Positions 14,101 through 63,600 of a DNA stretch of 64,000 nucleotides are shown here, piece after piece. Each line of letters opens with the position of its first letter. The stretch's first letter is position 1. The position numbers and the translations under genes are program-made. Origin of the DNA: Euglena gracilis (lineage: Eukaryota); contig CP154954.1 in assembly GCA_039621445.1 (NCBI GenBank), forward strand, positions 43,813,847 through 43,877,846. Reading direction: 5' to 3'. The notes under the pieces were generated by a model, which saw nothing but the letters and a program-made list of their open reading frames with translations, was not told the origin of the DNA and searched no databases.

Positions 14101-15123
14101 AAGGCAGTGTTCGATGCCTGGCTCAAATGAGGACTAATGCGGCACAATTTTGCCAAAAGAGTTTGCACTTCTTCCCCCAGGATGGCCATATGATGGTCAG
14201 ACGGTGGTGATTGCCACCAACTGTTTTTGGTGCATTTTCTCCAGTCACAAGGTGCAGAGCATGTGTAAATCATTGCTGGAAGTGCAGACATGATGCGCGT
14301 GTGTGCGTGTTGTGCGTAACTGTGTAAGTGTGTGCGTGCGTGTGTGGGTGGGTGGGTGTTTTGGGAGCGTGTGGGCAGGTGCGAGTGAGTGTGAACGTGT
14401 GCAAGTGCTTACGTGCTCTCTCTCAACTCTCTCTTTCTCTTTGTGTGTGTTTTATGTGCGTGCATTTGTATCAGGAGTCTTGGACTCCCAGGGGAGGGGG
14501 GTAGGACAGGTGGGTCCGGCCGAGCCCCCACGGGGGGTGTCCCCCCAGGGGCCGGTGGGATATACTTTTTGGCGCCGAATGCGCCGAAATTTTTCAAAAG
14601 GTGTTATTTTTAGCATTTTTCGCAATTCTTTTGGCCATTTTCAGGGAAAATTGAGTGGGCCCCGGGACCCCCCGTCCCCCACAGGGGGGGGGGGGTGGGT
14701 GGGGGACCCCTCCCCCGGTCTTAAAAAAAAAGCCCCCTGATTTGCATACGGATGAGTGAGTAAGTGAGTGTGTGCTTGCATGTGTTTCCCTGTGCCAATG
14801 TAGAGCGTCTGTGTATGTTTGCACCAGCCTTGCCCCTGATCGACCGGGCTGTCCATGCCACGACCCTCTCCGTCGGGGGAGGGGGCTGCCTACTGCCGTA
14901 CGACCAGGTGCTGGCGGTGTGGCAAACCCTGAGCGTCCCCGGCAGCGAGGACACACCACCCCGCTGCGACCAGAAGACGCCTGTGCCGCCGAGCTGGTGG
15001 CCGGGGTATGGATGCCTGCGCACCAGACGGCAGCACTCCCTGACGCTGGGCGTGCGCTCCAAGCCGACCAACTGGCTGCTGTGTGTGACCCTCGTCATGG
15101 TGAGGCGCACCCCGGGCCATTGA
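11189..15123 (+). CDS. Putative multi-exon gene, degenerate EF-hand (calmodulin/centrin-like) protein
   Basis: Exon-like GC3-rich segments at ~11189-11295 (LILPLLHVTLNRLLF), ~11683-11790, ~12397-12525 (DEQLFEIFQTF...GTGKILPLDLEK), ~13538-13570 (FHPMEGEVKK), ~13971-14030 (GTDGLVHVDQIPTIL), ~14884-15123; junctions and start not resolved. Confidence 0.35.
14472..14739. mobile_element. hAT-like MITE, family B (same family as 59174-59453)
   Basis: CAGG...CCCCTG ends; flanks ATTTGTAT / ATTTGCAT (7/8 TSD); internal GGTGGGATATACTTTT..G.GCCGAA and CCCGGTCTTAAAAAAA shared with the 59 kb copy. Confidence 0.75.
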
Positions 15124-15500
15124 AATGCCATTTGCCTCGAAATGAATCATCTGCACCTGAAGTTTGTCAGGTTGAACTCCCATGGTATGGTTGGGTTTTA
15201 CTGAGTGTACCTATGGCGGACGTTACGCCTTGTCAAATCCCCATGGGGTTGTTTGCTACCAGAGATGGGTTCGGCCCTTCTTCGGACATTTGTTGGGGGG
15301 CTTGCTAAATCCCAAAAACTCATGCCTGTGCCACTCCCACTTTTTGGACTTGGTATCTTTTAATAAACCAGTGCCTGGGTGTCATTGAGTACTCATCATT
15401 CTTGCACGAGCGCACAGTACCCACCAGGAATACTGAAAAAAATGAGTGACCTTATGACCAAGAACTGGTTACAGATTTGATTTGGATTTGAAATGGCTGG

Positions 15501-60600: not shown

Positions 60601-63600
60601 ATTTTCTCATGATGGACAAAATCTGACAGGGAGTTAAACAAAATTTCTCCCCCCAAATCCCACAAAACCCTAGGAACACGCCATTGTTGCCAAATATCTC
60701 AGCCGTTGATGACGTTGTTAATGTTGTTGACTAATTCTAGAATTTTTTCCACCCCGTTTTGTTTTGTTCAAAGAGGCCTTTTGAGACAATTTTTATTCAC
60801 GGCACATTGTAGTTGTGTATGGTGTAGTATGTTGTAAGGTGTATTTTTTTTGCTCTTTGGTGCTGTGTTTAACCCTCCTACAGGAAGTCCATTTTTTTAA
60901 CTGAGAAAACTGGAAAGTTTTCCCAGGATTGTAATTTTGGGGGGAGCTGGGGTGGGGCGAAACAGTGTCCCAATGATTTAGCAACCCATCAATTGCGGAG
61001 CCTGACCACTGGATGTCACCCGGCCAAGGGGTTGCTTAAAGTTGTGCTTCACCGGACAGCCGAGATGGCTTGAATTCGGTCTGCAAACAAACATCTCTTT
61101 CGTTCCAACACCAAACACAATTTGAAAATTGAAGCAACTTTAACCAGCAAACGAGTTTCGCTCATTTCTCCAGTTTCAATTTCTTTTTCATTTGCGAGTG
61201 TGGCAAGGCGTCCTGTTTTCTTCACAAACCCAGTCAAATATCACTCCTAACCCCCCCCAAGTTTGACTTGTGCAGTTGTGATGGCAAGGGACTCCCCAGA
61301 CCCTCCCGGACGCCTCTGCAGGCCCCCTGCAGGAGGATCTCCGGGCGATCGAGAAAACGTACAGCATCGTGGCGGCGGTGACCGAGGTGAAGGTGACGGT
61401 GTCGGGGCCGGGGCATCGCTGAATTGAAAGAAACCCCCACCGGCGGGGGGTGGCGGGGGGGGGGTCCAGCCAGCCTGTGGTTTTTTCCCGCCCCGGTGCC
61501 CCCCCTTCCAGTCAGGGAACGAACCTCCATGGGTCGGGGGGTTGGCCGGCTCACACCAGCAACTTGAATTGCCGTTGCTTGGGAGGGAATCTCCGGCACT
61601 CGTGCTTTCGGCTTCATTTGCCAAAGAATGGTGACGGTGAGGGCAAAACCGGGGGTGACCAATAGGGGGGGGTGACTAACTGTACGGTGGTCAGAGTTGG
61701 TCAAGAAATCCAAAAGTGGCAAAATTGACCACAAAAAATGACTCCAAATGGGCAAAAATGCAGCCTCCACCAACGATGAAAATGACCTGAACGGGAGATT
61801 GATGGAGAAATTGCTTCTGCATTGCAAGGTTTTGCAAGGGTGTGGCACGGGTCATTTTGCTACGAGTCAATGGCTGGCCGACCGCTGGCCGACGGCGTGC
61901 GCCCCCACCCCCGCATTTCAGAGGTCGACTTCCTCGGCGCAACGACGTAGACTGGGGGGGGGTAATGGGTAGTCGGCCGCCTTCTTTCTTTCGGCCAGCC
62001 CAACTTGGTTTGCCTTTGGGTGGACCCCACCCCCGGGGGTCGGTCAGCGACTCCCTGGCCGGGGCTCAAGGTGCTGGTGGAGAAGGCCGCCAAGGAGATC
62101 CTGTACCTCCTCCAGAGCGGGGCCCGGCCGCCGGAGGGCTGGCACGGGGTCCTGCCGACGCTTAGTGTGTTGCGAGATTGGGGCTTTTGTGTTGTGCGCA
62201 CACAGCCAACTGAAGGGGTTGGCTCTATGAGGTCGGCATTTGCCTGTAGGATTTCACCAGAACCGGAATGATTCCACCAATATGTCTGTATGGGGCATGA
62301 CACCGCATTTTCAGCGAAATTATGTTGTTTCATTTTGCCACTAATAATTTGATTTTGAAACCAACGTACTGTATTATTTTGTCCCTGTTTGTTTTTACAA
62401 AAATGTCTTCCCAGCTGGTTTCTGTGTTTGTTTGAGATGTGGGCCAGGGTGGTGTTGTAAATGGGAGGGTCTTGGATGAGGAGCCAGCAAGTGAAGGGCG
62501 AGTTTCATTTTCACCATTGAGTGCTCGATATTCTCATAAATCAGAAATATCAGGGGGAATAGGTGAAAGCATGGACGTGCCCCCCCCCTTCTCTATGGGC
62601 AGCCTGCAGAGGTGGCCGTCAAAGGGATCCCTGTTTCGTGACTTTGGTTGCAGTGCATTTTTCATTTCATCGCAGTGTTCCTGCCCAAATAGCCTCCGCT
62701 CCACGGCTTTTGTGCACCCAAGTGGTATGCACACCGCAGGACAATCGGTTCGGGTTGTGATTTTATTTGTTTATTTTCTGTATGCATCATTGGTTTGAGA
62801 CGGCTGCACCGCCTGGCGCCCCGTCCGCTCCCACCCTTTTGGCCGGGCCCTCCCCAGGTCTGATCTCGGAGGCCGAGCTGGAGGCCGAGGCCCCCGCCGC
62901 CCCCACCACCGCCCCCTTGGCCCCGCCCAGCATCCCGCGGCCGCCGTACCGCAAGCAGGGCCGCCCAGCAGCGGCGCCGGGGCGAAAGCCCACTGCTTCA
63001 GATCCAGAATCCGGGCTTGAGATCCGCGTGGTTCGGCTCTCGAGCACCAGCTGGGTGCTTTGGTTTTTGGGAGTCAGATGTGGTCGTCCTGTACGTTTCA
63101 TTAGGAAGTCCAGGGTTGCCGGGAAACACAGTCGTATTCGCAGTGAATGCAACGTGATGGACGATGGAGCCCAACGTTGCCCCGGCCAGCTGGCTGGCTG
63201 GGGGGGGAACAGAACACCAGCCCAACGCCCGCCCTCTGTGTGAATCCTCCCGAGCCCAAAGACTGGTCCTCCTTTCTCACTGCCGGAGTTTTCCCAGACG
63301 GACAAGGGAATGGATTCCAACAGTGGTTGGGCTCCTCCCCCCAGCCCCCCCCCCCCACCGGCTCGGGGCCGCCCTGCCTCCGCCATGGCGCGGCCGCCGG
63401 CGGTGGCGCGGGGCCCCTACTCTCGGGCACCGTACCGTGGCCCCGCCGCCCAGGGCCCAGTGGACTGGTGGAGTCCCCCCCCCACATTTCGTGTCTGGCA
63501 CGGCGGCCGACCCCCCCCCCCTGCCATGCCCAACACTGCCCCCTCAGCCCCCCGCCCCTGCCGGCACCCTCATCTCGTACGCCATCCGCATCTCGGGCGT

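Follow-up and report, generated by a model that had tools for sequence, protein, structure and literature searches.

Nonconventional introns and short CAG-ended elements in a 64-kb window of Euglena gracilis: a possible hAT-type connection

Euglenid introns and introns derived from transposons

Where do the nonconventional (NC) introns of euglenids come from, and what is the logic of the 3/5 spacing at which they are cut? A MITE-like origin (MITE, miniature inverted-repeat transposable element) was proposed in 2014, when no euglenid transposable elements had been identified (PMC3935182). Both questions are addressed here with a 64,000-nucleotide stretch of Euglena gracilis DNA (assembly GCA_039621445.1, contig CP154954.1, positions 43,813,847 to 43,877,846), called the window and numbered from its first letter. 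It holds seven short elements that start with CAG, end with CTG and carry 8-bp flanking duplications (four perfect, three at 7/8), and 12 verified NC introns whose flanks share a modest excess of identity in an 8-nt register. The original prediction for this DNA was that splicing, by cutting 3 nt before and 5 nt after the paired intron ends, would remove a hAT element together with exactly one copy of its 8-bp target site duplication (TSD).

The code for NC splicing has been set by knock-in mutagenesis as N3-CDG...CHG-N5-6/R, where the slash marks the cut and R is a purine; the 5' spacer is fixed at 3 nt and the 3' spacer is 5 nt, with one extra nucleotide tolerated and two giving a weaker result (PMC12501133). 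This geometry is therefore known from experiment and is not new. The same 2025 paper restates the MITE suggestion, reports 'slidable' introns, and describes the origin of NC introns as unclear and their machinery as unknown. A 2024 review depicts NC introns with CAG/CTG as terminal inverted repeats (TIRs) and with TSD-like border repeats, and reports their excision as circles (PMC11282704). Milanowski (2016) described a recently gained, strain-specific gapC intron of E. agilis with 8-nt direct repeats, for which the authors invoke break repair; 43 of 55 NC introns are followed by an exon with A as its second nucleotide, and Y/R (pyrimidine, cut, purine) is found at both junctions (PMC4770533).

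The 12 introns verified here are ordinary members of this class, sharing the geometry, terminal helix, purine and junction direct repeats described by Milanowski (2014, 2016) and Nomura (2025, PMC12501133). In the parts of those papers that were accessible, no transposon superfamily is named, no MITE families with matching ends are described and the spacer sum is not equated with a TSD. More generally, no paper was found that names hAT or equates 3+5 with an 8-bp TSD in a search that did not extend to subscription journals and supplements.

The introners of Amoebophrya are the closest parallel outside euglenids. Like the elements described here, they are non-autonomous and MITE-like; likewise, their end inverted repeats form a hairpin that joins the exon borders, and direct repeats lie over the boundaries. 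They differ in having direct repeats of 3-5 nt and recognisable repeated families (PMC7789003), whereas the repeat in Euglena would be 8 nt long and excision follows a distinct non-GT-AG code. Of the marks of introners, whole introns in a near-identical multicopy family were not found within the 64 kb, while direct-repeat traces at the borders, as left by removal of an element plus one TSD, were.

Non-autonomous hAT elements of the Ac/Ds and Hermes type share with the elements of the window the 8-bp TSD and a preference for nTnnnnAn targets. In maize, the ordinary spliceosome excises Ds at splice sites that lie within or close to the element; no system that measures a helix and removes the element with one TSD is involved. 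A Ds element is said to have become a new intron in maize, a case ascribed to Giroux (1994) by Milanowski (2014).

Splice junctions, direct repeats and CAG-ended elements

Reads over positions 40101-60100 were drawn from two contig runs guessed to be RNA, one raw RNA-seq run and one DNA-like run. Ten non-GT-AG joints in one gene and two GT-AG joints in a second were supported by each of the three RNA runs, whereas no DNA-like contig contained them, and they are therefore products of RNA splicing and not DNA variants. A transcript-derived protein maps two more NC introns and three more GT-AG introns in the second gene. The verified NC set thus comprises 12 introns from two genes, ten established by RNA joints and two by the transcript-derived protein. 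The genes and introns, with canonical junction placement for gene 1, are as follows.

40989-48790, + strand: gene 1, thaumatin-like, 11 exons and 10 NC introns; RNA joints, register, spliced translation and Pfam Thaumatin
41162-41646, 41692-41970, 42159-42636, 42768-43060 and 43115-44643, + strand: first five NC introns of gene 1; RNA joints
44746-45740, 45881-46573 (3+7 spacing), 46698-47246, 47370-48116 and 48317-48758, + strand: last five NC introns of gene 1; RNA joints
57671-62952 and beyond, + strand: gene 2, EG_transcript_26789, 240 aa, no Pfam domain, both intron types
57729-58071, + strand: NC intron of gene 2, N3-CAG...CTG-N5; flank 8-mers identical at 5/8; next exon begins with C
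61406-62062, + strand: NC intron of gene 2, GGC-CGG...CTG-GCCGG/G; flank 8-mers GTCGGGGC/GCCGGGGC (7/8); TIR 9/12
58133-58595, 58672-58865, 58918-59781, 59962-61321 and 62165-62857, + strand: GT-AG introns of gene 2; RNA joints (two) and transcript-derived protein (three)

How closely do these introns follow the published geometry? The terminal helix was located in each and the unpaired intronic bases on its two sides were summed, a measure that is independent of where a 'slidable' junction is placed. The best-helix sums in gene 1 are, in order of the introns, 8, 8, 6, 4, 8, 4, 10, 4, 6 and 8. Nine of its ten introns pair in the +4/-6 register, some with extra pairs further outward, and both NC introns of gene 2 fit the 3/5 register. 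Altogether, the cuts lie 3 nt upstream and 5 nt downstream of the terminal helix in 11 introns, as the original prediction had stated, and a purine starts the downstream exon in 11 of 12. The in-register paired triplet is CAG/CTG, CGG/CCG or CGG/CTG in six.

The intron that departs from this spacing, 45881-46573, has CAG...CTG ends with 3 and 7 nt outside them; its longer spacer resembles an insertion that the machinery tolerates, although it exceeds the lengths assayed in published work. By a hand count from its printed ends, these are inverted-identical at 9 of 12 positions after a 2-nt shift.

A naive predictor of NC introns that combined helix and reading frame ranked the true junction first in only one of seven test cases, and predicted introns were therefore excluded from all statistics. 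Two homology-supported candidates, 28801-29113 and 31319-33263, were likewise left out of the counts.

If splicing removed an element plus one TSD, traces of the duplication might persist at the intron borders. The 8 nt to the left of the +4 base were compared with the 8 nt to the right of the -6 base in each verified NC intron. The matches per intron are 4, 5, 3, 2, 5, 2, 5, 3, 5, 2, 5 and 7, giving 48 of 96, against 23-38 at the 16 other offsets when the right-hand 8-mer is slid from -8 to +8; pairs mismatched between introns average 2.86 of 8. A permutation of partners that preserves the composition at each position gives p=0.0018, or p=0.032 when the two junction-adjacent positions are removed. 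The ten RNA-verified introns alone reach 36/80 (p=0.017). By contrast, the five GT-AG introns show 15/40, which is the baseline. The verified NC introns therefore carry a modest excess of identity that is specific to the 8-nt register.

This comparison at other offsets had been named in advance as a check on the original prediction, and the individual 8-mer identities quoted there are true of the sequence: 7/8 for intron 61406-62062, which the transcript-derived protein confirms, 6/8 for a predicted intron at 63448-63565, and 5/8 each at 18472, 43115 and 31319. The intron 43115-44643 is established by RNA joints, and that at 31319 is still a prediction, the top candidate by code plus homology. 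A further 5/8 pair claimed at 15662, given without a 3' end, could not be reproduced; the best partner there matches at 1/8 and the reading frame is broken.

The ends of the NC introns can also be compared with one another and with the CAG-ended elements. The two ends form an imperfect inverted repeat, identical at 7-11 of 12 positions, in all but one of the 12 introns, with the consensus C-A/G-G-G; 16 of the 24 ends have G as their fourth base, which is also the fourth base of the elements' CAGG. The seven elements, to which no strand is assigned, are listed here.

14472-14739: hAT-like MITE; TSD ATTTGTAT/ATTTGCAT (7/8), fits nTnnnnAn; one family with 59174-59453
31543-32372: hAT-like non-autonomous element, 830 bp; TIR 11/12; TSD ATGCATAC (8/8); within predicted NC intron 31319-33263
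46876-47146: hAT-like MITE; TIR 12/12, CAGGCTTGTGCT; TSD GTGTAGAC/GTGTGGAC (7/8); within verified NC intron 46698-47246
47581-47874: hAT-like MITE; TIR 12/12; TSD TTCCGGAG (8/8); within verified NC intron 47370-48116
50189-50527: hAT-like MITE; TIR 9/12; TSD ATCCCAAG/ATCCGAAG (7/8); 3' of the thaumatin-like gene
56920-57535: hAT-like MITE, 616 bp; TIR 12/12, CAGGGCAGAACG; TSD CCCCTCCC (8/8) of low complexity; located upstream of gene 2 as mapped from its first exon
59174-59453: hAT-like MITE; TIR 11/12; TSD CCCCAAAT (8/8); within GT-AG intron 58918-59781

The elements at 14472, 31543, 47581 and 59174 had been reported before, and their positions, CAG...CTG ends and duplications (8/8 for three, 7/8 for 14472) were all borne out; those at 46876, 50189 and 56920 are further elements found in systematic scans of the window. 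Their earlier description as intronic MITEs holds by RNA for 47581, which lies in an NC intron, and for 59174, in a GT-AG intron, and the intron around 31543 has homology support only. By RNA, too, 46876 and 47581 are nested in larger NC introns. The TSD of 31543-32372 lies in low-complexity CATA/CATG surroundings, and 47581-47874 has a partial diverged copy at 29611-29820.

The combination of CAG ends with a duplication of 8 bp is specific, as two comparisons indicate. CAG-started elements with a perfect TSD number three at length 8, against zero or one at lengths 5, 6, 7, 9 and 10. The window has 2042 pairs of inverted repeats that match at 11/12 or better; flanking 8-mers are identical at 7 or more of 8 positions in 6 of 33 CAG-ended pairs, against 4 of 2009 others, and those four are mostly of low complexity. 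With relaxed TIR thresholds, 14 pairs have flanks of at least 7/8, compared with 4-12 in wrong-register controls; such pairs hardly rise above the controls, and only elements with strong TIRs or family support were therefore accepted.

One of the six CAG-ended pairs, 46360-50527 (TIR 12/12, flanks 7/8), was rejected as a repeat artefact; as an element it would be 4.2 kb long and span four exons. The CAG at 46360 and the MITE at 50189 share a homologous left flank of ~50 nt (...GACTNCATCCNAAG/CAGG..., compared over 46280-46480 and 50109-50309, the slash preceding the CAG end). A MITE end and its flank were therefore copied inside a larger repeat, which mimics a duplication around 46360-50527.

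Several features liken the elements to hAT transposons. All seven have the 8-bp TSD of the superfamily, and five of the seven TSDs fit nTnnnnAn, a pattern with a frequency of 5.3% in the window (P=7.9e-6). Short TIRs beginning with CAG match Ac-type hAT ends, and the hAT end consensus is YARNG. All 14 element ends begin with CAGG, the TIRs are 12-17 bp long and identical at 8-12 of 12 positions, and the fifth position is G, as the consensus asks, in only 7 of 14 ends and otherwise C, A or T. The nTnnnnAn pattern is the target preference of the hAT transposase Hermes (PMC10368747). A fuller octamer consensus for Hermes and hobo was sought in the literature without success and plays no part here.

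The word depth of the bins that bear elements in the DNA-like run is ~7e4-1.4e5, compared with ~25-80 in repeat-free bins, which is consistent with high-copy families, depth not being copy number. On the sense strand, three of the elements (46876, 47581 and 59174) conform to every part of the published code, and a purine thus follows N5 in them.

Genes, transcripts and other repeats of the window

The window is Euglena gracilis nuclear DNA: in a protein database comparison, exon 59781-59960 is 98% identical to eukprot:EG_transcript_26789. It contains at least three genes, defined on the + strand. The junctions of the third, listed here with one of its introns, are predictions.

About 14.8-33.4 kb, + strand: gene 3, adenylate/guanylate cyclase domain; predicted junctions; Pfam Guanylate_cyc and a paralogue
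31319-33263, + strand: predicted NC intron of gene 3, GCC-CAG...CTG-GCCCC/g; helix of 8 bp; flank 8-mers 5/8

The intron 31319-33263 is the top candidate by code and homology, its basis being the code, the reading frame and an ungapped fit to the paralogue. This paralogue, which came from a search of representative proteins, is 65% identical and too distant for base-exact junctions. The sole database protein with the cyclase exon 29097-29303, from a Logan assembly, is an unspliced read-through of 28905-29306; in that collection gene 3 is therefore present only as intron-retaining or genomic contigs. No RNA run was identified for 14400-24399, where the contig runs guessed to be RNA share 0.10-0.25 of words, possibly derived from repeats.

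When 300 of the 309 open reading frames (ORFs) of at least 100 aa in the window were compared with Pfam, Thaumatin and Guanylate_cyc were the only families at E<1e-4. There were no Pfam matches in the ten longest ORFs or in nine candidate exons. The GC content of third codon positions (GC3) was barely informative as an exon filter.

In one exon of gene 2, positions 59827, 59879, 59880 and 59915 differ from the window in RNA contigs and in roughly 50% of raw RNA reads, and the DNA-like run carries three of these variants (59879, 59880 and 59915). The differences look like allelic or strain variation rather than editing. Past 62952, where the database protein ends, the genome reads AAG-CAGGGC and resembles the start of a further NC intron.

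Other repeats lie in and around these genes. The GT-AG intron 59962-61321 contains a (CACACC) array of ~63 copies at 60113-60493. Within the GT-AG intron 58133-58595, an internal fragment (~350-421 of 463 nt) is similar to MITEs (E=1e-8 against a small MITE set). In the DNA-like run, bins 45437-46103, 51440-52106 and 54775-55441 far exceed all others in word depth (8e4 to 3.7e5), pointing to further very high-copy repeats.

Origin of the introns and logic of the 3/5 cuts

How might the elements and the introns be connected? According to the published non-GT-AG rule, the ends of an NC intron pair in the pre-mRNA, +4 to +6 with -8 to -6 (typically CAG/CUG). One cut is made 3 nt upstream of this helix and the other in front of a purine, 5 nt (in some introns 6-7 nt) downstream of it. 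The same DNA appears to be littered with high-copy, non-autonomous transposons of hAT type, with CAGG TIRs and 8-bp duplications at nTnnnnAn-like sites. If such an element were transcribed within an exon, its ends would offer the required CAG/CUG helix. Since 3+5=8, the machinery would take out the element and exactly one copy of the duplication, restoring the pre-insertion mRNA. The imperfect terminal repeats and the partial 8-nt identity of the flanks would then be remnants of TIRs and TSDs. On this account a hAT transposase would move the elements, insertions into exons would be spliced at once, and present-day introns would descend from them.

On balance, most NC introns are probably decayed insertions of hAT-type MITEs. 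The lines of support are independent of each other: the arithmetic of the spacers, the anatomy of the elements, the target pattern of their TSDs, the repeats found only in the 8-nt register and the 8-nt repeats of the gapC intron. They support the idea and do not prove it. Read in terms of TSDs, the features reported from E. agilis and other NC introns also fit, in that the gapC repeats would be a fresh 8-bp duplication, the A at exon +2 would be position 7 of nTnnnnAn, and Y/R at both junctions would be the same octamer occurring twice. The idea makes a published hypothesis sharper and open to test.

A number of results from the window weigh against it. The flank identity is uneven by position (7, 4, 5, 5, 9, 7, 3 and 8 of 12) and strongest beside the junction, and five introns reach only 2-3 of 8. 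All 12 introns come from just two genes, and the best of them, 61406-62062, had been flagged beforehand. The octamers at the spliced junctions fit nTnnnnAn in the right direction, but weakly (T2 in 4/12, A7 in 6/12, both in 2/12, P=0.04). The in-register triplet is of the CDG/CHG form in only half of the introns, and 45881-46573 has its 3+7 spacing. In three of the seven elements (14472, 31543 and 56920), the base after N5 is a pyrimidine and not the purine required by the code on the + strand. A sequence comparison speaks weakly in favour of the idea: with nested MITEs removed, the NC introns gave eight BLAST matches to MITEs at E<0.01, in four of 12 introns, against a mean of 0.6 and a maximum of three in 20 dinucleotide shuffles, and seven of the eight begin 10-42 nt from the intron 5' end; the matches lie in G/C-run motifs that the shuffle fails to preserve.

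Among the seven elements of the window, none is itself a whole intron. Nor does any NC intron terminus recur elsewhere within the 64 kb, and no intron here is thus shown to be a member of a multicopy family. Pfam found no hAT transposase domain in the 300 ORFs compared, and the elements are termed hAT-type by their TSD length, end sequence and target pattern. The observation behind the original prediction is thus confirmed as real and non-random. Its interpretation is partly supported: the arithmetic, anatomy, target pattern and register repeats speak for hAT-derived splicing, and the lack of a whole-intron MITE and of a hAT transposase in the window speaks against it. That the splicing code is tuned to, or derived from, hAT ends is at present an inference.

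Could the resemblance be coincidence or convergence? MITEs and NC introns would then be unrelated, 3+5=8 would arise by chance, any sequence with hairpin ends would be spliced, and the direct repeats would come from double-strand-break repair or from a preference of the machinery for Y/R at both cuts. Break repair was proposed by the discoverers of the 8-nt repeats (PMC4770533), and 84.4% of E. agilis introns, conventional (CV) as well as NC, are reported to have direct repeats near their splice sites (PMC12501133). The peak of flank identity at the two junction-adjacent positions (9 and 7 of 12), the lack of a MITE that equals an intron and the half of the verified introns without an in-register CDG/CHG are in keeping with this account. 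However, the identity withstands the composition-keeping permutation, even without those two positions, and the GT-AG introns of gene 2 stay at baseline. Moreover, intron and MITE ends are alike beyond the triplet (CAGG...), the hAT target preference predicts the A at exon +2 in 43 of 55 introns (PMC4770533), and a fixed length of 8 is not predicted by break repair. Convergence is considered unlikely, if the most serious of the competing accounts. Less probable still is the reverse direction, in which the machinery came first and only transposons with fitting ends and an 8-bp duplication persist near genes, the introns themselves being possibly of mixed origin. Every element in a verified gene context sits in an intron, as expected if genic insertions are filtered. 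Synthetic introns with only the code are spliced (PMC12501133), and recognition therefore needs no transposon-specific sequence beyond the helix. Taken alone, filtering does not explain why established introns have TIR-like ends and flanks that are alike specifically in the 8-nt register. It overlaps strongly with descent from hAT-type MITEs, the sole difference being which side adapted: the machinery may have been shaped by the elements, or the elements filtered by the machinery.

A different doubt concerns the name of the elements and could leave their link to the introns intact. Superfamilies other than hAT duplicate 8 bp (P, Merlin and some Mutator-like elements), or the elements could belong to an undescribed one. 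No transposase was found in the 300 ORFs, G stands at position 5 in only half of the ends, and the literature match for Euglena, hAT and transposase concerns, in what was accessible of it, Merlin elements in protists. The fit of five of the seven TSDs to nTnnnnAn and the short, CAG-started TIRs, which resemble those of Ac-type hAT elements, argue for hAT, and another superfamily is the most improbable of the alternatives.

If the introns do descend from hAT-type MITEs, a concrete donor, high-copy MITEs of the same genome with CAGG ends and 8-bp nTnnnnAn duplications, would turn the general 'MITE-like' idea into specific predictions. Young introns should have 8-nt repeats, and there should be intron families bearing these TIRs. 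Target footprints should appear as T at exon -4 and as A at exon +2, and a MITE with its TSD should be spliced precisely. A broader reading is possible, though rather doubtful: NC splicing may be an RNA-level eraser matched to one type of transposon, with the 3/5 cuts existing because hAT-type elements duplicate 8 bp, and with Y/R and the A at exon +2, the weak exon signals long known from the surroundings of these introns, being footprints of hAT targets and not splicing signals. NC introns make up some 70% of the introns of Euglena, and the majority of them would then be fossil hAT MITEs; each new insertion would be neutral from the start. If descent from hAT-type MITEs holds, the RNA processing of a host and a family of DNA transposons would match base for base, which would help to explain a genome with more nonconventional than conventional introns.

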